Positions 272 through 8,668 of a stretch of 10,084 nt of DNA are shown here, in pieces (position 1 is the stretch's first letter; every line of letters starts with the position of its first letter). The DNA comes from a virus. The notes beneath the pieces are model-generated. The model ran no database searches. It was not told the DNA's origin and was given only the letters and a program-made list of their open reading frames with translations. The position numbers and the translations under genes were made by a program. The stretch lies in UHGV virus genome UHGV-0216281, one strand, 5' to 3'.

Positions 272-1030
272 TTATCTCGTCACCTTTCTCAATTGTGTTT
301 CAGCATATGCTTCTTCCTGCCAGCACTTTGTTACCAGTTTATCAATGACGTCTGCATATCCTTTGTACCACTGATAATCAGTCAGGTCTGGAACCAGCTT
401 CTGGACATGACGTCGTGCCAGTGTAGTTGGTAAACGGCTAAACCGGTTTCCATTGCAACGCCCACAAATCTTATAAACAGGCGTGCCATGAAGCCGGGTC
501 CTTTTTTCATCCAGGACAATACCTTTACCCTTACACCCTCTGCACGCTGTGCTGACTTCTCCCTTACCATGACAATGCTGGCATAGTTCCTTCACCCACT
601 CTTCCTTGATAACAGATTCCCCGCTTCTGGAGTGTTTCACCACCTCGCGCAATACATTATGAAATCCAGTACCAGCACAATGCTCACAGCGAGCCTTACT
701 TGCCGCAGACCTGGAATAATCAGCAAAGGCAAAATTCACAAGGTAAGGAATGATCTGTAGCCGGGTTTCTTCACTCAATTTATTCAATGTCGGGTTATCC
801 AGTGCCATCGCGTAATTGAGCAGACCTTCAATCGCAAACTGAGGATCCTGAACACCAACTTTTGCCAGGAATAAGGCAAACCCAAGCGGTGCTTTCGACT
901 GCACCATCCCCTGCGCAGCCATCACATCCGTAATCGTTAAACCACCAGAGCCTGTCGCCGGTGCGTCATCGCTCAGTTTTGGAGATTTCGGGGAGTAATA
1001 TTTCGGTAAGGCTTCAAGGTTCATGCTCAT
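272..1030 (-). CDS. Late-gene antitermination protein Q-like (QuuQ-like), with four CxxC motifs of DnaJ-type zinc-finger pattern
   Basis: ORF of 252 aa. A GGAGA Shine-Dalgarno abuts the first ATG, so the second ATG at 1024 (250 aa) is the more likely start. Contains CEHCAGTG, CQHCHGKG, CRGCKGKG and CGRCNGNR (CxxCxGxG-like repeats). It is the last gene of the operon and sits directly upstream of a pR'-like promoter, pause element and terminator. The family assignment is from memory of Qin-type Q proteins and is not verified. Confidence 0.65.
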   Translation of the reverse strand: MSMNLEALPKYYSPKSPKLSDDAPATGSGGLTITDVMAAQGMVQSKAPLGFALFLAKVGVQDPQFAIEGLLNYAMALDNPTLNKLSEETRLQIIPYLVNFAFADYSRSAASKARCEHCAGTGFHNVLREVVKHSRSGESVIKEEWVKELCQHCHGKGEVSTACRGCKGKGIVLDEKRTRLHGTPVYKICGRCNGNRFSRLPTTLARRHVQKLVPDLTDYQWYKGYADVIDKLVTKCWQEEAYAETQLRKVTR

Positions 1031-1037
1031 TCTCCAC

Positions 1038-2033
1038 TTACGCCAGTACGCCTATTGCCAGCGCACGATCGATAAAACGAAATATCAGCTCCAGCTGGGA
1101 ACCATACTTCTCTTCAAATGCCACGGTATCCGCATGCAGCTCGTCGTGATGCTTTCTGCACAAAGGCAACACAAAGAGGTCATGCGCTTTTGTACCCATT
1201 CCCCCCTGACCGTGGCCTATCAGGTGGTGGGGATCATCAGCAGCCTTTCCACAACATGCACACGGCTGTGTCTTAACCCAGCGTGTGTACTTTTCATTAA
1301 CCCAGCGGCGACGTTTTGGGCGTAACATAAAAGACTCCGGCGACTCCGGATCCACTTTCAGCGCCAGCACCTTTTTCGCCTTATCCTGGATGATGCTGGT
1401 GGCAGGAACCGAAGGCACAAGGTCACTTTCCCGGGTGACAGACGGCACAACAGGCTTCGGTAATCTCAGTGCCTTACGGGCTGCACTTTCCGGTAAGGCA
1501 TCCGCCAGGTCATTACGAATCAGCCACCAGCACAGTTCCGGCATTGTCACAACGTGACTATCATCAAAACCGAGATCCCGACGCACAACAGACAACACCC
1601 AGCGGGCACAGTTATCCGTTGCCATTGATTCCAGCCGTTCCGTGAACTGATCGCGCAGCTGGTTATCGCAGTGCCAGCACAGACGGATTGCGCCCGGCGC
1701 GTGTCGCATTGTTGTCATGTTCTCGCTGTGCCAGTCGGAATGAGGCCACTGGCAGCCTTTTTCACGAAGTAACCAGCTTTCAAGACATTCCACGCCACCA
1801 GCACGACGGATCACTGCCTCATTGCGGAACACGGCCCGAACGTCAGGATCATCCGCCAGCGGTTGTGATGCCGCCGGAACAGCACCACTGGCGAAAGATG
1901 AATAACGTTCCGGCTCAGGCTCCAGCAGGACACGCCCCTGCATAAACAGGGGCATCAGCTCTGAACCTGGTCTGAACAATACGATCCCCATACGCGGGGC
2001 AATTTCAGGGGTCAGTAGTGCTCTCACGGTCAC
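1038..2033 (-). CDS. DUF968/YdfU-like prophage protein with a C-terminal Cys/His cluster (possible HNH-like zinc-binding module)
   Basis: ORF of 331 aa from a GTG at 2033; alternative starts are GTG 2027 and ATG 1991. The C-terminus carries CACCG...HHLIGHGQGG...CRKHHDELH. It sits immediately upstream of Q, as ydfU sits upstream of quuQ in the Qin prophage. The start codon is uncertain. Confidence 0.55.
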   Translation of the reverse strand: MTVRALLTPEIAPRMGIVLFRPGSELMPLFMQGRVLLEPEPERYSSFASGAVPAASQPLADDPDVRAVFRNEAVIRRAGGVECLESWLLREKGCQWPHSDWHSENMTTMRHAPGAIRLCWHCDNQLRDQFTERLESMATDNCARWVLSVVRRDLGFDDSHVVTMPELCWWLIRNDLADALPESAARKALRLPKPVVPSVTRESDLVPSVPATSIIQDKAKKVLALKVDPESPESFMLRPKRRRWVNEKYTRWVKTQPCACCGKAADDPHHLIGHGQGGMGTKAHDLFVLPLCRKHHDELHADTVAFEEKYGSQLELIFRFIDRALAIGVLA

Positions 2034-2034
2034 C

Positions 2035-2844
2035 TCAATGAACGGTATCGAGCAGCTTTAACAGCTCAGGGAATCGGGATTCGAAGAAATGCGGCTGCGT
2101 CTCACGCGGATTTGCGGGACTGGTGATGTTCTTGCCGAACATGCAGCCTTTCGCCGTCAGCGACCAGAATTTTTTGATGTTGTTAATCGCGGTACGGCTG
2201 TATCGTTCGCGCTGCTCGACGATCCCCAGTTTCACCATCTGGTGATATGCCTGATTAGCCGTCAGGCGGATACCATACTGCTTCAGCAGTGCACTCAGTG
2301 ACAGCGTGGGGCGGCTTGAGCCATCAGGCGCGTCAGCAGGAGCATCAATGGCATAGCGCGGTGCCAGATTCGGTAAGCCAACAGCCTCCTGGAGTTTCTG
2401 ACAGGCACCAAGCACTGAAGAGTTAGACAGGTTTAACTCCCGGCGCATAAAGTCCAGCAGGATCACGCCAGCCTGCATCTTGTCAGCAGCCTGCCCGGAT
2501 AATTTTTCCGGTGCGCTGGTTACCATATCGAAAGTACGGATCACCTTCAGATGGAATGACGGGCTGATCCACATTGCATAGGCATACACCAGTTCTTTGC
2601 AGACATACGTCCCCTGGTTATTTCCGCCATTAATGACGCTAACTGGTTGATTTTGTTCCAGAGGCGGAATTCCACCCTCGGTGAAAAGTTGTTCAATCAA
2701 TTCACAGGTTTGCTTATTGGAGAGCCAGTATTTCGGGCGGTTTTTTTGTTCTCCCCCGGCTGCCCTGTGCAGATCGTTCAGGCTGTAACGCCCATAAGCA
2801 TCACGACGAACTTCAATACCATCAATAACCATCAGATTATTCAT
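2035..2844 (-). CDS. KilA-N domain protein (antirepressor-like)
   Basis: ORF of 269 aa with an ATG start and a strong RBS (GAGGAGA, 8-nt spacer). The N-terminus MNNLMVIDGIEVRRDAYGRYSLNDLHRAAGG matches the KilA-N DNA-binding domain pattern. The stop lies 1 nt from the next gene. Confidence 0.7.
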   Translation of the reverse strand: MNNLMVIDGIEVRRDAYGRYSLNDLHRAAGGEQKNRPKYWLSNKQTCELIEQLFTEGGIPPLEQNQPVSVINGGNNQGTYVCKELVYAYAMWISPSFHLKVIRTFDMVTSAPEKLSGQAADKMQAGVILLDFMRRELNLSNSSVLGACQKLQEAVGLPNLAPRYAIDAPADAPDGSSRPTLSLSALLKQYGIRLTANQAYHQMVKLGIVEQRERYSRTAINNIKKFWSLTAKGCMFGKNITSPANPRETQPHFFESRFPELLKLLDTVH

Positions 2845-2863: not shown

Positions 2864-3253
2864 TCAGGCGGCTGCACCCGCCGGTTTCTCATACTTACTG
2901 ATAGTGATCTCGACCTTCCCTTTCGGGATAACCGGTCCCCACTCCACCAGCATTCTTTTCACCTGTCTGTCGTCTTCCCACACACCCGCGTGGGTCAGGG
3001 CGTCAAACAGCGCCTTGTTATAGTTGTCCAGATCGCGGATCCGGTTATCCGGAGGAAACAACACGATCTCCACTGAAGCAGGTGCCGACGTTGGTTTTGG
3101 CAGACGACGTAACTGCTCAACTATTGCTGCGCACGCCGCGCTCTGAAATTTTCGCCCCGCCGCGCTTATCAGGCTCTTACCAGCAAATGCCCCTTTGTTG
3201 GGGTGTCGCCAGTAGGTGTTCACGCTGGGCGGGAAAGGCAGGATCAGCTTCAT
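2864..3253 (-). CDS. rusA: Holliday junction resolvase RusA (crossover junction endodeoxyribonuclease)
   Basis: 129 aa. PPDNRIRDLDNYNKALFDALTHAGVWEDDRQV corresponds to the RusA catalytic region (RRDLDN...FDALT...DD) as I recall it. The ATG overlaps the upstream stop in an ATGA junction. Confidence 0.88.
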   Translation of the reverse strand: MKLILPFPPSVNTYWRHPNKGAFAGKSLISAAGRKFQSAACAAIVEQLRRLPKPTSAPASVEIVLFPPDNRIRDLDNYNKALFDALTHAGVWEDDRQVKRMLVEWGPVIPKGKVEITISKYEKPAGAAA

Positions 3254-3576
3254 ACTTTCAGGCCCCTCTCATGTAACCAGTGGGCTGCACGCAGCCTGGC
3301 GTTTTCCTCACCGACAAGCAGTGAGCGGATAATCCCGACCGCCTCGCTGTCGTCGTCCTTCACCGCGGTATGAAGCGTGATCCCCCGGGCCACACCACGC
3401 TTTATCGTGATGACGCCTTTTTTCTCCAGTGCGCGAAGATGCTCCACCGCTGCATTCACCGAACGGTATCCCAGCATGGTTGCCACTTCCTGATTGGTTG
3501 GCGGGAAGCCACGCTCTTTCTGATAAGAAATCAGCATATCCAGCACCTGCTGCTGGCATTGAGTTAACGTCGTCAT
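3250..3576 (-). CDS. LexA N-terminal DNA-binding-domain protein lacking the S24 peptidase domain
   Basis: 108 aa. Residues 3-70 (LTQCQQQVLDMLISYQKERGFPPTNQEVATMLGYRSVNAAVEHLRALEKKGVITIKRGVARGITL) align closely with the E. coli LexA N-terminus ([65 protein letters not shown]). No Ser/Lys dyad region follows. ATGA overlaps occur on both sides. Confidence 0.8.
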   Translation of the reverse strand: MTTLTQCQQQVLDMLISYQKERGFPPTNQEVATMLGYRSVNAAVEHLRALEKKGVITIKRGVARGITLHTAVKDDDSEAVGIIRSLLVGEENARLRAAHWLHERGLKV

Positions 3577-4226
3577 GCCGCCATCTCCCTGACCAGCTTT
3601 TCCGCCTGCAGGCGAACCTGCGCCAGAAACGCCTCACCACATGCCTCAAGTTCATCGCGCCCGATGTAGCTGATTGCCGGTCCCTTCCAGGTCTTGTCGA
3701 AAACAGCAATAGCACCAGCGAAGAAAGCGCCTGTCGGCACCTGCTTCTCATCCTTCGGGATAAACCAGGCAGGCAGTTCAAAACCAATACGCCCGCGAAT
3801 AAAAGCAATATGATCTGCATCTTCCGGCCACCACACTTCGCTGGTGGCAGCTTTGATCAGGAAAACATAGCGCCCGCCCTTATCACGCATGGCACTGGCA
3901 TGCTTCATGATGTAACGCATGCCGGTGATGTATTGCCCCTCATGCTGACTGGCGCGGCTGTATGGGGGATTTCCAAAGGCAGCACCTTTAAGCTCCGCAA
4001 GGCGTTCTGACCAGTCATGCGCCAGCGCGTTGTCTTCCGCCGTGTAATACGCAGCACATTTGGCGTTATCACCGTCAGTGAACAGATCCAGAACAAACGG
4101 ACCAAACAGGGTGTTAATTCCCCAGAAAATGTTGTCCGGCGTGCGCCACTGATCGCCCACTTCCTTCAGTTCATGGGCTGGTTTGTTCCGCAGTTCCACC
4201 AGCTCCTGGCAATATTTATTACTCAT
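3573..4226 (-). CDS. Phage Dam-family DNA N6-adenine methyltransferase
   Basis: Contains the motif IV sequence GNPPYS (NPPY). The ORF track starts at a GTG at 4259 (228 aa), but the ATG at 4226 overlaps the upstream stop as TAATG, which suggests a coupled start giving a 217-aa product. It occupies the position of the yfdM-like methylase in CPS-53-type prophages. Confidence 0.85.
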   Translation of the reverse strand: MSNKYCQELVELRNKPAHELKEVGDQWRTPDNIFWGINTLFGPFVLDLFTDGDNAKCAAYYTAEDNALAHDWSERLAELKGAAFGNPPYSRASQHEGQYITGMRYIMKHASAMRDKGGRYVFLIKAATSEVWWPEDADHIAFIRGRIGFELPAWFIPKDEKQVPTGAFFAGAIAVFDKTWKGPAISYIGRDELEACGEAFLAQVRLQAEKLVREMAA

Positions 4227-4714
4227 TAAGCCCCCACGTAATTCCCTGACAGATACCACTCTTCACCTGATGCAGCCCGCTTACTGCTTTTCCGTAAACA
4301 CCGTTCACGACGCGCCAGAAAATTGTTTCGTTCTGGCTGGGAGTAGCTTTCACGGAATGCCGCCATCCACACCGTTGCAGCACGACGGTATAAGCCCCTG
4401 GACTCCAGTTCTTCCGCCTGGCGGGTCAGGCACAAAATCACCCGGGGATCGTTAGTGCCGACATAGAAATTGCGCACAGGTCTGGTTTCACGAACTGGTT
4501 GTGGTTCCGGCTCCTGCGCTCTCTCAGTCAGGCGTGGGAAATGTCTGCGTGTATCTCCTTCACAACGGTGAGCCACACGCCCACTCTGACGTAACTTGCT
4601 TGCTGACTGCAGAACGCGCTGCCGTGAGTAACCTGCAAAAGCATCCGCAATGTCTCCGGAAGTACAGCCCGGATGGGCTTCAATGAATTTCTGAACGTCA
4701 TTCAAAAGACTCAT
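4226..4714 (-). CDS. YfdN-like protein, possibly PerC-family (C-terminal EELESRGLYRRAATVWMAAF motif)
   Basis: The ORF track gives a GTG at 4720; the ATG at 4714 with a GGGGG RBS is the more likely start (162 aa). It is coupled to the replication gene stop. The PerC-like C-terminal motif is recalled from memory, so the family assignment is tentative. Confidence 0.55.
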   Translation of the reverse strand: MSLLNDVQKFIEAHPGCTSGDIADAFAGYSRQRVLQSASKLRQSGRVAHRCEGDTRRHFPRLTERAQEPEPQPVRETRPVRNFYVGTNDPRVILCLTRQAEELESRGLYRRAATVWMAAFRESYSQPERNNFLARRERCLRKSSKRAASGEEWYLSGNYVGA

Positions 4715-4716
4715 GA

Positions 4717-5658
4717 TCACCCCCTGAATCCTGCCGGGATCTGGCTGTAGTCCACGTTGTCGTAACTGGCTTTGAAGTACGGGTCTTCGCGTTTTTCGGT
4801 GTACGTGCTGACGGACGGCGATAAGCGCAGGGAAAGCTCATCCCATTTTTCCCGCAACTTCGACGGGCTGAGCACGTTACGGCACCAGAACGGATCGCGG
4901 CTGACGCGGCTGTACATCTCGCAGATTTGTTTGTGAGTACGACCATCCTGCACACACATCAGGCGAATTTCGTTTGCCCATGCTGTCCAGTTAGGTTCTT
5001 TGGGACGAACCACCTCGCCGTCACATTCGGCGGCCTGCTCGTACAGGGCGATGATTTTTTTCCAGAGCCACTGTGCGCAGGTCAAATCATCCTGCGTCCC
5101 CCACTGGCGCTTTTTAGGGCTGAATACAACCGCATCAGGATGGCGAGTTAAAAAATCCTGTTCATCCGTCTGCGTGTCCGGTTGCGAAGCGTCCGGACGA
5201 GAAGGTTTTTTATCTGACGGATCATGTTTTGATTTTACTGACGGATCCCCGCCAGATTCTGACGGGTGAAAACCCGCTTTTTTGCCAGATTTCGACGCAT
5301 CAAATTTTGACGGGTCAGATTTTGATGCGTCAGATTTTGACGGGTCAGAATCTGACAGTTGAGAAAATGCCGCTGCCTGAAGCTTCGCAACGTTAAGCTG
5401 ATAAACATTCGACGCATTGCGGTTACCCTGGCGACGCGCCTTACGCGTTAACCAGCCTTCTGCTTCCAGCCGTGCGATAGCCGTTCTGACGGTACTCATC
5501 CCCGCGCCAATCTGACGGGCAATAGTTTCAATTGATGGCCAGCACACACCTTCGTCATTACTGAAATCAGCCAGGCGGGCCATAATTGCCACGCTGGATA
5601 ATTTCATGCCTGACGCAGCGCAACCATCCCATACATAGCCGGTTAATTTAGTGCTCAT
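4717..5658 (-). CDS. Replication initiation protein, lambda O-like (N-terminal winged-helix/HTH, repeat linker, C-terminal domain)
   Basis: 313 aa. The N-terminus SSVAIMARLADFSNDEGVCWPSIETIARQIGAGMSTVRTAIARLEAEGWLTR is typical of phage and plasmid replication initiator HTH domains. The central low-complexity linker SDPSKSDASKSDPSKFDASKS is encoded by DNA tandem repeats. It sits in the O position after cro and cII. Confidence 0.8.
   Translation of the reverse strand: MSTKLTGYVWDGCAASGMKLSSVAIMARLADFSNDEGVCWPSIETIARQIGAGMSTVRTAIARLEAEGWLTRKARRQGNRNASNVYQLNVAKLQAAAFSQLSDSDPSKSDASKSDPSKFDASKSGKKAGFHPSESGGDPSVKSKHDPSDKKPSRPDASQPDTQTDEQDFLTRHPDAVVFSPKKRQWGTQDDLTCAQWLWKKIIALYEQAAECDGEVVRPKEPNWTAWANEIRLMCVQDGRTHKQICEMYSRVSRDPFWCRNVLSPSKLREKWDELSLRLSPSVSTYTEKREDPYFKASYDNVDYSQIPAGFRG
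5254..5358. repeat. Tandem 15-bp direct repeats (consensus AGATTTTGACGGGTC) inside the O-like gene; candidate origin iterons
   Basis: Units at 5254-5268, 5287-5301, 5302-5316, 5317-5331 and 5332-5346 (the last is a perfect match to the consensus), with a partial unit at 5347-5358 and a degenerate copy at 5231-5247. Four units are contiguous. This parallels the lambda ori iterons embedded in the O gene. Confidence 0.55.
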
Positions 5659-5827
5659 GACCGACCTCTATTTCCCTGAATTTACGACGAAACTGTTCGA
5701 GCGGGCTAAAGCACTCATGCTCATAGCCTTCACGGAGGTAGATAACCCGTTGTGTTTCCGGCTCCCAACGAATGACTCTGACGGGCACTCCGTAGTGATC
5801 TTTGAACCAGCGGTTAACTTGTCGCAA
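5648..5827 (-). CDS. Small hypothetical protein (about 60 aa, TTG start) in the alternative frame
   Basis: The frame is open from 5869; a TTG at 5827 is preceded by GGAGA with a 7-nt spacer. The product [59 protein letters not shown] has a globular-looking composition. It overlaps the 112-aa ORF by about 160 nt and the O start by 11 nt. Confidence 0.3.
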
Positions 5828-6006
5828 AGGACTGTCTCCTTCTGCCGGTTGAAATCCCCCACAGCCCACTCAGCAAAGCTGTGGGTTACAATTTCCCTGT
5901 CACCTGGTACATTTACTGCATAGCAATACTCCACCTTCGCTTTTCCACCCGGTACAGGAAGCGCAATCAGTTGCGAGCGACGGTAGTGTGTTGTTAAACT
6001 GTTCAT
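5668..6006 (-). CDS. Hypothetical protein (112-aa ORF), translationally coupled to the cII-like gene
   Basis: The ATG at 6006 overlaps the upstream stop in an ATGA junction, with a GGAGA RBS 9 nt upstream. The N-terminal half looks protein-like; the C-terminal half is Ser-rich and low in complexity. It conflicts with the 5648..5827 frame. Confidence 0.4.
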
Positions 6007-6560
6007 GCGTTAGTTTCTCCACAACCAGAAGCAATCGACGCCACGACGCCCGGAGCTGCACACTCGCGGGCGTCATTACTTTCTGAAACGCAAAAAATTT
6101 TGTAGACAAGTGCTGCATGCTCCTGCAGCTTCGAAATTGAGAGGTACAGCTCGTCGTTAATTGCTGTCTTCTCATGCGGTTCCACTACACCGTCTTCGAT
6201 TGCCGAACGAATCTGTTTTGAATAACTGCCGATCTGTTCAATGACTTCCAGTAAACGCTGGTTAATATCGGCATTGTCCACATCCTCGACGTCAGGAAGA
6301 GACACAAAGACGCCATTTGCAGACTGCGCCACAGCGTCAGCAATGAAGTGAGTGCCACCAGCACGTTGTAAAATCATTGCCCATCCCAGCGGGAAAATCT
6401 GATCGCCATCGGCACGAAGGCGGTTAAATAATGCGTTCTCTGTTACATCCAGCCACTCAGCAGCTTCAGCGTAACCCCCCGGCAACGCCGCGATAGTTTT
6501 TCTGACAGCTTTCACGTACCACTCAGGCTGTTTTTCCACTTTCCAGTGATGATTACCCAC
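6003..6560 (-). CDS. cII-position regulator (YdaT/CP76-like)
   Basis: 185 aa from a GTG start with a perfect AGGAGG RBS and 6-nt spacer. It overlaps the cro-like stop by 8 nt. It sits directly after cro, as ydaT follows ydaS in the Rac prophage. The family assignment rests on position and recollection. Confidence 0.55.
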
Positions 6561-6813
6561 GGCTTACCTCCTGTTCCTGTGGTTTAAACCCATTCTGGTT
6601 TTGGCTAGATTGAAAACGTGCCGGATAAAGAATCTGCATTTCGCTGATTTCACCCTTAAAAAAATTGGCCAGACGTTCTGCAAGATCGATAGATGGAATT
6701 TGTTCCAGTCTTTCAATACGACTCAGCGTCGCTGGATTGACCTGAACGCCAGCAGCAACATGCTGCAAAGTAAATCCGTGCGCCTTACGCACATTCCGTA
6801 ATGGTGATTGCAT
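6553..6813 (-). CDS. cro: Cro-like HTH regulator (YdaS-like)
   Basis: 86 aa, transcribed divergently from the repressor gene. HTH segment GFTLQHVAAGVQVNPATLSRIERL. GGAGG RBS with a short 4-nt spacer. Confidence 0.75.
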   Translation of the reverse strand: MQSPLRNVRKAHGFTLQHVAAGVQVNPATLSRIERLEQIPSIDLAERLANFFKGEISEMQILYPARFQSSQNQNGFKPQEQEVSRG

Positions 6814-6825
6814 ATGACCTCCACA

Positions 6826-6906
6826 TATTGCGTGATAAGCATATTATTTCACGCAAATATTTTGCGCAAGTTGATTTGCTTAACGCGCAATAAAGAAATG
6901 TAATAA
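6826..6906. promoter_or_regulatory. Divergent cI/cro control region: operator-like repeats and candidate pR and pRM promoters
   Basis: 15-bp motif TTGC(A/T)TA-N3-CGCAA at 6876-6890 (plus) and 6828-6842 (minus orientation, ATGCTTATCACGCAA). Extra half-sites TCACGCAA (6849-6856) and palindromic TTGCGCAA (6862-6869) give two TTGCG-N19-CGCAA symmetric units. Candidate pR on the minus strand: -35 TTGCGC (6869..6864), -10 TAATAT (6846..6841). Candidate pRM on the plus strand: -35 TTGCTT (6876-6881), -10 TGTAAT (6899-6904), giving a near-leaderless cI mRNA. Confidence 0.5.
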
Positions 6907-6910
6907 ACGC

Positions 6911-7603
6911 ATGAACATAGGAAACCGAGTCAGACAACTTCGCCAGGCGAAGAACATGAAAATCGCCGATCTCGCTGAAGCAATAGGAGTGGATGCGGCG
7001 AATATCTCACGCCTGGAAACAGGTAAGCAGAAACAATTCACTGAACAAGCCCTGAGTAATATTGCCAGGAGCTTAGGTGTTGATATTGCTGATCTCTTTA
7101 CCTCAGACTTCAAAAGTAATACTGTATGTAAAAACAGTATTAGTGAGGATGTTGCGCAGGTGAAGGATGTATTCCGTATTGAAATGCTGGATGTCAGTGC
7201 CAGTGCGGGAAATGGCCTTATCCAGGGCGGTGATGTCATTGATGTGATTCATGCCATTGAATACAGAACTGATAATGCTGTATCGATGTTTGGCGGACGG
7301 CCAGCCAATCACATTAAAGTTATCAACGTTCGTGGGGACAGTATGTGTCCAACCATTGAGCCAGGAGATCTCATCTTCGTTGATGTCAGTATCAATCAGT
7401 TTGATGGAGATGGTATCTATGTATTTGGTTTTGATGATAAAATTTATGTCAAACGACTGCAAATGATACCTGACAAACTACTGGTGATTTCTGATAACCA
7501 GATTTACCGTGAATGGGGAATTACCAGCGAAAATGAACACCGGTTTATGGTCTTTGGAAAGGTCTTAATCAGCCAGTCACAAACCCTTAAGCGACACAAT
7601 TAA
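6911..7603 (+). CDS. cI: cI-type prophage repressor (N-terminal HTH, C-terminal S24 LexA-like autopeptidase)
   Basis: 230 aa. The N-terminal HTH is IADLAEAIGVDAANISRLETGK. The C-terminus carries the S24 catalytic Ser motif GDSMCPT and the Lys in YVKRL. No Shine-Dalgarno precedes the ATG, consistent with a leaderless message. Confidence 0.9.
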   Translation: MNIGNRVRQLRQAKNMKIADLAEAIGVDAANISRLETGKQKQFTEQALSNIARSLGVDIADLFTSDFKSNTVCKNSISEDVAQVKDVFRIEMLDVSASAGNGLIQGGDVIDVIHAIEYRTDNAVSMFGGRPANHIKVINVRGDSMCPTIEPGDLIFVDVSINQFDGDGIYVFGFDDKIYVKRLQMIPDKLLVISDNQIYREWGITSENEHRFMVFGKVLISQSQTLKRHN

Positions 7604-7711: not shown

Positions 7712-8121
7712 TCTTTCCAGACAAACAAACAAGGTACTAACAAAATTTGGTTGTAACACGGCGTATGGCACATGCGTCGTTAGCGGTCTGGGGACGTTAA
7801 AGGGGACAATCCACTCCTTGCTCGGGCAAACAAACCAGGTAGCCGGAATGTGCAAGTCAATGATGATGCTGATAAGACGCCTAACCAGCGTGGCGATTCG
7901 GTTTGACGCCTGGGAAGAGACCAGGGTGCAACGATGAGGGCATTTATGGAGCCGCGACAAAGTGTGGTGCTGTAACTGGCTAAGTGCTCTCAGCGTTGTG
8001 GTAATCCGCGAAATGGCGCGGCGGTAAGTATGGCGGGGTTACTCTTTCCCCGTTGAGGACACCGGATTGTCAGGTTGACCATACGCCTGAGTGACAAGCC
8101 CACCACAACAGCCACTGCTTT

Positions 8122-8168
8122 GGCGGTACCAGTTTGTACACTTGCTTCCGGCTGGTACCGCTCTTTTT
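8122..8168 (+). terminator. Terminator-like hairpin with a T-run (tL1-like), overlapping a boxA-like CGCTCTT core
   Basis: Stem ggcggtaccag (8122-8132) pairs with ctggtaccgc(t) (8152-8162) around a 19-nt loop, followed by CTCTTTTT. CGCTCTT at 8159-8165 matches the core of lambda nut boxA (CGCTCTTA). The loop is large for a canonical terminator. Confidence 0.4.
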
Positions 8169-8257
8169 ACAAAACAGAGAAGAGCATCACCGGACGACGG
8201 GCTCATAACCCAATCCATCCGGGCGGCTGCCACCGCAGGTGTTCTTCTCTGTTTTGT
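8169..8257 (+). repeat. Long-range inverted repeat (15 bp perfect, extendable to about 20 bp with G-U pairs) enclosing about 50 nt, immediately upstream of the yfdP-like start
   Basis: acaaaacagagaaga (8169-8183) is the exact reverse complement of tcttctctgttttgt (8243-8257). Pairing continues through 8188/8238 if G-U pairs are allowed. The interior contains a further small hairpin, gcgg-ctgcca-ccgc. Confidence 0.6.
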
Positions 8258-8305
8258 GGAGAAACCAACCGACCTTGCAGGGTCGATATGATGAGGAGCA
8301 GCAAA

Positions 8306-8668
8306 ATGGCTAGCGAACGCAGTACTGATGTGCAGGCATTTATCGGGGAGCTGGACGGCGGCGTATTTGAAACCAAAATCGGCGCAGTTCTCAGTGAAGT
8401 CGCTTCCGGTGTGATGAACACAAAAACCAAAGGTAAGGTCTCACTCAACCTGGAAATCGAACCATTTGATGAGAACCGTGTGAAAATCAAACACAAACTC
8501 TCATATGTTCGCCCGACTAACCGCGGGAAAATTTCCGAAGAAGACACCACCGAAACGCCGATGTATGTCAATCGCGGTGGTCGCCTGACTATTCTGCAGG
8601 AAGACCAGGGACAATTACTGACTCTTGCCGGTGAACCTGACGGAAAACTACGCGCAGCAGGTCATTAA
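8306..8668 (+). CDS. yfdP: YfdP-like protein (120 aa, unknown function)
   Basis: ATG at 8306 preceded by an AGGAG RBS with a 7-nt spacer. The ORF-track extension back to 8075 (TTG start) has non-protein-like composition and no RBS. The 120-aa size and the order with the following 274-aa and HD-domain genes match yfdP-yfdQ-yfdR of CPS-53 as I recall them. Confidence 0.65.
   Translation: MASERSTDVQAFIGELDGGVFETKIGAVLSEVASGVMNTKTKGKVSLNLEIEPFDENRVKIKHKLSYVRPTNRGKISEEDTTETPMYVNRGGRLTILQEDQGQLLTLAGEPDGKLRAAGH

Follow-up and report, generated by a model that had tools for sequence, protein, structure and literature searches.

An O-like initiator with a DnaT-type C-terminal tail in a lambdoid replication module without an obvious helicase loader

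Read on its minus strand, the stretch of DNA analyzed here, 10,084 nucleotides (nt) of the virus genome UHGV-0216281 (hereafter the window), corresponds to the immunity and early-right region of a lambdoid prophage. Its replication module comprises an O-like initiator, a YfdN/PerC-like protein of 162 amino acids (aa) and a Dam methyltransferase. A preliminary description of the window had remarked on the lack of an obvious helicase or helicase loader beside the initiator, and Pfam and PHROG scans bear this out. We find that the initiator ends in a short peptide of the type that ends the host protein DnaT, and that among related loci the type of this tail, and not the initiator core, goes with the type of loader. 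The features of the module are the following:

4717-5658 (stop codon included), minus strand: O-like replication initiator, 313 aa (list of open reading frames (ORFs), Pfam, PHROG, BLASTP)
5449-5592, minus strand: N-terminal winged-helix (HTH_36) domain of the initiator, presumed to bind iterons (Pfam; weaker GntR, DnaD_N and RP-C matches)
5200-5360, no strand: presumed origin inside the initiator gene (repeat search, composition, GATC positions)
4822-5106, minus strand: lambda-O-type C-terminal helical domain, O_C (identity to lambda O, AlphaFold2 (AF2) model)
4720-4791, minus strand: DnaT-type tail REDPYFKASYDNVDYSQIPAGFRG (translation, low predicted local distance difference test (pLDDT) score, DnaT match)
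4226-4714, minus strand: YfdN/PerC-like protein, 162 aa from its ATG (Pfam PerC, PHROG 1324, AF2)
3573-4226, minus strand: Dam (N6-adenine) methyltransferase, 217 aa from its ATG (Pfam Dam, E=1e-45)

The three genes are as tightly packed as had been described. The ATG of yfdN, preceded by a Shine-Dalgarno-like AGGGGG, lies 2 nt past the TGA stop codon of the initiator gene, and the start of dam overlaps the yfdN stop as TAATG; YfdN would be 164 aa long if an upstream GTG is taken as its start.

The initiator matches PHROG 391 ('replication initiation O-like', E=1e-135) and, at aa 23-70, Pfam HTH_36 (E=4e-11). Pfam gives no Phage_rep_O N-terminal domain in this protein, and finds HTH_36, GntR and DnaD_N-like winged helices instead. 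This N-terminal winged helix would bind the iterons, four tandem copies of which lie at 15-bp spacing in 5286-5360, with more copies at 5215-5267 (repeat families D1/D2). The region also contains the inverted repeats I3, I5 and I7 and an A+T-rich stretch at ~5200-5240, and the iteron array is located between the sequences encoding the N- and C-terminal domains, as the lambda ori sits in O; these features point to an origin of replication. The iterons (5200-5360) double as coding sequence for a DPSKSDASKS-type peptide repeat in the linker of the initiator. GATC sites are present at 5220, within the A+T-rich part, and nearby at 5244, and the phage carries its own dam gene two genes downstream. 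DnaA boxes were considered as a recruitment route and rejected: 13 matches with one mismatch were found versus 8.3 expected, none of them in the ori region.

The C-terminal half of the initiator is homologous to that of lambda O; BLASTP gives 31% identity over 216 aa (E=7e-26), and over the aligned part of the C-terminal region, where lambda O residues ~180-270 are matched, the identity is 42%. It is this half of lambda O that binds P. In an AF2 model of residues 165-313 (pLDDT 81), helices at model residues 25-114 make up one domain, and the ~35 residues after it form an unstructured tail. For this helical domain, O_C, Pfam gave no family and Foldseek found no similar fold in the PDB.

The last ~24 residues of the initiator, which are predicted to be disordered, end in ...VDYSQIPAGFRG (in the longer version ...SYDNVDYSQIPAGFRG), and E. 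coli DnaT ends in ...EPDSQIPPGFRG (also written ...SEPDSQIPPGFRG, longer ...RDVNTVSEPDSQIPPGFRG), so that eight of nine residues are identical at the exact C-terminus. Some relatives have initiators that are nearer to DnaT than the one in the window, ending in ...SEPDTEIPPGFRG, ...NHISEPDTEIPPGFRG or ...RDINQISRPDNTVPPGFRG. A profile of eleven O C-termini aligned with DnaT over residues 156-179 only (hhalign, E=3.5e-6). On the host side, all near-full-length DnaT orthologs (~170-185 aa) among the 120 listed keep the motif (K/R)RD.N..S.PD..IP.GFRG, bar single-residue variants; in the alignment of O proteins the terminal P..GFR is invariant or nearly so (P144, G146, F147 and R148 are conserved), and the linker that precedes it is variable. 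Some records name these phage genes 'primosomal protein I' because of this shared tail. We considered whether the C-terminal half of O is the C-terminal domain of DnaT, and rejected this, as hhalign aligned the tail only and no support came from a PDB profile search, Pfam or Foldseek. Similarly, neither the three-helix DNA-binding domain of DnaT (PF17948) nor its N-terminal trimerization domain was matched in O by Pfam, NCBIfam, hhalign or Foldseek. From these alignments we take the tail to be a copy or mimic of the conserved flexible tail of DnaT.

The same tail ends three different initiator bodies, namely the lambda-O_C type, gp43 of phage mEp460 and YdaU of the Rac prophage (DUF1376). In mEp460 the gp43 gene (locus L235, 34466-35281) encodes the last 24 residues of the window initiator exactly, after a different C-terminal body, and is followed by yfdN and dam. 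YdaU, which ends in LRQVNTVSLPDSAIPPGFRG, is followed by the DnaC homolog YdaV. Gp43 combines HTH_36 with an unrelated C-terminal domain, which places a mosaic joint inside the initiator gene just upstream of the tail.

Matches to the P, DnaC/IstB, DnaB and primase families are absent from the scanned ORFs of the window, both from cro (6553-6813) to the Q-like gene (272-1030) and on the cI side. Three genomes were examined whole for a loader: those of SfII, mEp460 and Klebsiella phage Kp4872-1. The complete genome of the Shigella phage SfII, in which a 3.4-kb block is 97% identical to that of the window, has no annotated helicase or loader, and a Pfam scan of 26 non-structural proteins found none; mEp460 has no helicase or loader annotated either. 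Searches by tblastn with lambda P, three other P homologs, E. coli DnaC and a phage DnaC returned nothing in the window, SfII, mEp460 or Kp4872-1. A P, DnaC or DnaB homolog elsewhere in the prophage, for which the preliminary description had allowed, was thus not found in any of these four.

The block is widespread. Complete or partial copies at 95-98% nucleotide identity occur in SfIV, mEp460, the PhiR phages (some of which are recorded with E. coli C as host), phage 1720a-02 and phages converting for Shiga toxin (Stx) 2, and the module was found in 2789 of 5426 complete E. coli genomes. In the K-12-type arrangement yfdO is a 122-aa C-terminal remnant of the initiator, including the DnaT-type tail, and is followed by an intact yfdN; this CPS-53-like arrangement is seen at 4567-5426 of the E. 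coli loci L087/L088.

To relate tail type to loader type, we classified 222 O_C-bearing loci by the tail of the initiator and the genes that follow it, and clustered them at 90% identity. The loci came from one genome per species and from a motif scan of viral contigs, used in place of a first viral-contig scan that had given near-identical copies only. A homolog of lambda P comes after the initiator in every one of the 12 clusters with a W..AWENTL tail and in none of the ~22 clusters with a DnaT-type GFRG tail (Fisher test with the latter count taken as 22, p ~2e-9). The P-linked tail reads GGHWN(S/T).EAWENTL or a close variant, and lambda O itself ends in TDWIYGVDL. After DnaT-type tails we find yfdN, a methylase gene directly (in Klebsiella phages, Citrobacter and an Enterobacteriaceae metagenome-assembled genome), DUF977/LygF, a YdaW-like gene encoding a double winged helix-turn-helix (wHTH) protein, or a DnaC homolog. 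The O_C cores do not follow this division. Those of a Klebsiella locus with the methylase directly downstream (L121) and a Mixta locus with P downstream (L091) are 86% identical, and all similarity between the two sequences ends just past ...ELSLKLS; a neighbour-joining tree of the cores, which carries no bootstrap support, has P-linked and non-P initiators intermingled. Thus, the O_C core does not track the partner, whereas the tail type does so without exception in our samples.

The P-linked O proteins (L091, L092, L094, L100-L102, L118, L136, L184 and others; lambda is L002) share a conserved extreme C-terminus, and GGHWN(S/T).EAWENTL is, by this conservation, a candidate P-binding peptide. 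In Serratia and Sodalis-type modules P (in Sodalis, O) is followed by a conserved protein of ~114 aa that could be assigned to no family (L100 5612-5956, L108 5049-5396, L102, L153, L192, L226), and in Sodalis an 81-aa PerC-only protein comes next after it.

An independent scan of viral contigs looked for the canonical tail PD..IP.GFRG followed by a stop codon, irrespective of the rest of the protein; 90 ORFs with this tail had 900 bp or more of sequence beyond them. The gene directly downstream encodes a DnaC homolog in 57 cases, DUF977 in 25, a methylase in 2 and YfdN in 1; it is an unknown ORF in 5 and a P homolog in 0. After dereplication, 18 of 24 clusters have DnaC-linked members, and the canonical tail is carried by three or more types of initiator. 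Phage and E. coli DnaC are colinear and share 48-50% identity over the full length of the phage homologs, and the order of a tail-bearing protein and then DnaC mirrors that of the host, where dnaT lies directly upstream of dnaC. Two initiators that are 92.6% identical differ in whether a phage dnaC is present (L171) or absent (L096); the phage gene is therefore dispensable for that initiator, most simply via host DnaC. A dnaC homolog is present or absent between the initiator and the downstream DUF977 gene not only in L171 versus L096 but also in L162, L134, L145 and L191, and this facultative dnaC is often accompanied by the YdaW-like double-wHTH gene.

We favour the explanation, with a probability of roughly 50%, that the module is an initiator-only module in which the DnaT-like tail recruits the host DnaB-DnaC complex and YfdN is an accessory regulator. 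By analogy with lambda, O would bind the iterons inside its own gene through the N-terminal winged helix and open the adjacent A+T-rich stretch. The DnaT-type tail would then engage DnaC, or DnaB6-DnaC6, and bring the host complex to the origin, through the same contact that DnaT would make in replication restart and that related initiators would make with their own DnaC homolog. Host DnaB would be loaded and the host replisome would take over, with no need for a phage P, DnaC or DnaB. Engagement of DnaC by the tail is suggested by its repeated association with DnaC homologs, by the mirrored dnaT-dnaC operon and by the anticorrelation with P; these genomic patterns point to DnaC or DnaB-DnaC as the likely physical partner. 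The preliminary description had listed recruitment of host DnaB/DnaC by the initiator C-terminus among its options, and the comparative evidence favours it, by way of a DnaT-type tail that the description had missed.

Several points weigh against this explanation. The tail in the window is the variant VDYSQIPAGFRG and not EPD..IPPGFRG, and this variant is never followed by a phage DnaC in our samples, so that its link to DnaC is made by extension. For the tail of DnaT itself, the accessible literature assigns no partner, and a DnaT-DnaC contact is undocumented even though dnaT lies directly upstream of dnaC (PMC5778457). Structures of the preprimosome from 2026 led to the suggestion that it is the N-terminal domain of DnaT that recruits DnaB/DnaC (PMC13377028), and deletion of DnaT residues 154-179 mainly reduced the affinity for single-stranded DNA (ssDNA) and the cooperativity of binding in vitro (PMC4132743); given these effects, the DnaT tail might have another function. 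The YfdN-like genes occur in our samples almost only in loader-less modules, which fits a role in replication as well. Finally, the tail could be a passenger from the capture of a host dnaT'-dnaC segment by a phage, but its retention after loss of dnaC argues against such an origin.

A wider generalization would be that the DnaT tail is the element by which the restart primosome engages DnaC or DnaB-DnaC, that temperate phages of enterobacteria have repeatedly grafted this tail onto unrelated origin-binding initiators, and that the terminal peptide decides between P and a DnaC-type loader, be it of the phage or of the host; the working of loader-less modules such as that of the window would thereby be accounted for. 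We offer this tentatively, and regard it as possible rather than probable.

The main rival places the missing function in YfdN, which would be an analogue of P that bridges the O C-terminus to host DnaB or DnaB-DnaC and is needed for replication. We consider this unlikely, though several arrangements speak for it. YfdN sits where P would be expected, and its gene is closely coupled to that of O; the adjacency is kept in Citrobacter (L090), where YfdN is 47% identical, in L097, where the neighbour is a wHTH-PerC protein whose PerC domain shares 35% identity, and also in Salmonella and Hafnia prophages. In addition, YfdN/PerC-like genes in our samples come almost only after initiators with a GFRG tail that lack both DnaC and P, and mEp460, with its different initiator body, retains the same tail together with YfdN.

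The properties of the protein itself argue otherwise. Pfam PerC is matched at aa 100-151 (35.1 bits versus a gathering cut-off of 22.6), the protein belongs to PHROG 1324, and there is a weak match to the ANR family (NCBIfam); PerC and ANR are small transcription-factor-like proteins. The AF2 model (pLDDT 78) shows a winged helix (aa 1-60), a disordered linker (63-83) and a three-helix PerC-like domain (90-149). Foldseek with this model returned wHTH repressors only, none at E<=0.001, from a PDB library that included loader complexes. Structure prediction, which the preliminary description had proposed for the 162-aa protein, thus yields a winged helix with PerC/ANR-like helices, and no resemblance to the folds of P or DnaC. 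A hidden P was rejected (BLASTP to lambda P, E=0.21 over 8 residues), as was a hidden DnaC (best E=0.76, not significant), neither having support at the level of fold.

The relatives also speak against a required adaptor. Kp4872-1, with an initiator 72.7% identical to that of the window and a genome that was searched whole, lacks YfdN and has the methylase directly after the initiator; L095 and L103 lack it as well, with the same direct order, and some E. coli contigs have the identical tail and then Dam directly. A homolog of the YfdN N-terminal domain follows P in Kp4864-1 and so coexists with a loader, and other small wHTH genes (DUF977, YdaW) occupy the slot in loader-containing modules. 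The homolog in Kp4864-1, a 100-aa wHTH gene, was the only relative of this domain among those compared (E=8e-5); kinship with DUF977/LygF or YdaW was rejected (E=0.16 and 0.021). The suggestion that the 162-aa protein is an unrecognized helicase-recruitment factor is hence not supported, as it has no similarity to P or DnaC and is absent from close relatives that have the initiator. We rate YfdN as accessory, because it is absent from close relatives, its kind coexists with P, and other wHTH genes fill the slot; it is probably a regulatory gene of the post-replication (nin-like) slot, and would be dispensable in the phage of the window. The family comprises 97 clusters at 50% identity in 1.84 billion proteins, ~25 of them full length, and no paper on its function was found in the accessible literature.

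Alternatively, the DnaT-type tail could dock the initiator on the PriA/PriB preprimosome, or replace DnaT there, with DnaB loaded via the restart pathway. The tail is indeed common to DnaT, which is a subunit of the preprimosome. The site of contact between DnaT and PriA was listed as unknown in 2018 (PMC5778457), and the 2026 structures dock the DnaT C-terminal domain on PriA without discussing residues 154-179 (PMC13377028). However, the strongest genomic partner of the tail is a downstream DnaC homolog (57 of 90 ORFs) and not a PriA or PriB homolog, and the O_C core is unlike the three-helix DNA-binding domain of DnaT by Pfam, hhalign and Foldseek, and we consider this route improbable.

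It is still less probable that the O_C core binds host DnaB in the way of an iteron-plasmid Rep protein, with the tail serving in ssDNA binding, oligomerization or turnover. Iteron-plasmid initiators do recruit DnaB without a dedicated loader. Deletion of the DnaT tail had its main effect in vitro on the cooperativity of ssDNA binding (PMC4132743), which would suit a tail of this kind. Against this, two cores can be 86% identical and yet differ in whether P follows, and it is the tail that tracks the loader without exception. Moreover, the same core family binds P in lambda, as established by lambda genetics.

The notion that the module is defective, or relies on another prophage in the same cell for P, DnaC or DnaB in trans, has in its favour that several lambdoid prophages often co-reside in E. 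coli strains and that the K-12 copy (CPS-53 yfdO-yfdN) is a remnant. It is hardly credible, however: the module is found in the complete genomes of named phages, some of them recorded with the host E. coli C, roughly every second complete E. coli genome has it too, and the genes in the window are all intact and tightly packed. The defective module that the preliminary description had allowed for is therefore rejected.

With the favoured explanation of tail-mediated recruitment of host DnaB-DnaC in mind, the module can be compared with known systems. Like the lambda O/P module, it has an iteron origin in the initiator gene, flanked by the coding regions for an N-terminal DNA-binding domain and for a C-terminal domain that is homologous in the two modules, and it is placed in the early-right operon after cro and cII. 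In contrast to lambda, a P gene is lacking, HTH_36 takes the place of Phage_rep_O at the N-terminus, and the C-terminus is of the DnaT type (IPAGFRG) instead of the W-rich TDWIYGVDL of lambda or GGHWNSPEAWENTL of the P-linked relatives. The ydaU-ydaV-ydaW module of Rac and the O'-DnaC-DUF977 modules share with the window the DnaT-type tail, the absence of P and the small wHTH genes downstream. They differ in having their own DnaC/IstB-type gene directly after the initiator, in the body of YdaU (DUF1376, versus HTH_36 and O_C in the window) and in the downstream genes (YdaW/DUF977 versus YfdN). The module of the window is closest to these Rac-type initiator-DnaC modules, minus the DnaC gene. 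With host dnaT-dnaC (PriA-PriB-DnaT) the likeness consists in the last ~10-20 residues of the initiator, which match the flexible tail of DnaT, and, in relatives of the window, in the order of a tail-bearing protein and then DnaC. The initiator lacks PF17948 and the N-terminal domain of DnaT, and whereas DnaT is localized at forks by PriA/PriB, O would be localized by sequence-specific binding to the origin.

Iteron-plasmid initiators such as pSC101 RepA, R6K pi and RK2 TrfA also bind iterons through a winged helix and use host DnaB-DnaC. Their origins usually use DnaA boxes as well, in contrast to the window, where DnaA boxes are not enriched and none lies in the ori region. To our knowledge, none of these three proteins has a DnaT-type tail. 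The PerC/Pch and ANR families share with YfdN the PerC domain and a small helical fold, the ANR match being weak; YfdN differs by its additional N-terminal winged helix and its location in a replication region.

The 'Eru' replication regions of Stx phages (Llarena 2021; Fagerlund 2022) resemble the window in being cI-proximal, in encoding an HTH_36 protein and in lacking an O/P pair. When a 3.4-kb query (window 3500-6900) was used, 65% of it was matched by the Eru6 reference, Stx2a_WGPS2, with an identity of 94.7%. Assignment of the window to 'Eru6' is nevertheless only partly right, as Eru6 and mEp460 have a different initiator body and an extra Rha gene, and only the tail-YfdN-Dam block is common to them and the window. 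Related Stx-phage regions have been classed as non-lambdoid 'Eru' regions, about whose replication proteins, according to the authors, nothing is known (Fagerlund et al., 2022; PMC8951638).

The genes that surround the module in the window are the following:

6911-7603, plus strand: cI-like repressor (window gene scan)
6553-6813, minus strand: cro-like helix-turn-helix protein (window gene scan)
6003-6560, minus strand: CII-like regulator, YmfL/Phage_CP76 (Pfam PF06892 E=8e-14, PHROG 101)
5648-5869, minus strand: DUF4222 small protein, directly upstream of the initiator (Pfam DUF4222, E=3e-19)
3250-3576, minus strand: protein with a LexA DNA-binding domain only, 108 aa (Pfam, E=3e-19)
2864-3253, minus strand: RusA (window gene scan)
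2035-2844, minus strand: KilA-N protein (window gene scan)
1038-2033, minus strand: DUF968/HNH protein (window gene scan)
272-1030, minus strand: Q-type antiterminator (Pfam Antiterm, E=4e-54)

The CII-like YmfL gene forms the upstream context of the early-right operon. Between it and the initiator (5648-6006, minus strand) lie two overlapping ORFs in different frames, each of which is annotated somewhere: RefSeq annotates the DUF4222 protein (5648-5869), and the SfII record and PHROG 1170 a 112-aa ORF (5668-6006). Protein-level conservation in relatives is 75-86% for the DUF4222 frame versus 38-56% for the other. The true start of the DUF4222 gene is probably internal, giving ~59 aa, and the protein is annotated as 59 aa in Salmonella and Hafnia prophages. 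The 108-aa LexA-domain protein has no peptidase domain and is kept downstream of Dam in many relatives, and the Q-type antiterminator bears DnaJ-like CXXCXGXG zinc-finger repeats. On the cI side, a 197-aa ORF (8075-8668, plus strand) without a Pfam match lies in a G+C-rich patch (~0.55) adjoining the A+T-rich immunity region (~0.40).

Loader-less 'non-lambdoid' regions have been catalogued previously; the DnaT tail and its link to the loader are new within the accessible literature, in which we found no statement that these initiators carry a DnaT tail or that tail type predicts the loader. This type of module is very common: about half of complete E. coli genomes carry it, as do serotype-converting Shigella phages and some Stx phages. 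If our reading is true, a peptide of ~10-20 residues would predict the helicase-loading route of a lambdoid replicon, and it would be clear why phage initiators are so widely labelled 'primosomal protein I / DnaT'. The findings in phages would then also bear on how DnaT hands DnaB-DnaC to the fork, by pointing to a specific and easily mutated element. Two questions thus become testable, namely how DnaB is loaded in lambdoid phages without P and what role the tail of DnaT has. Unlike lambda, these phages would depend on host DnaC, and this dependence would matter for their induction and for the dosage of toxin or serotype-conversion genes.

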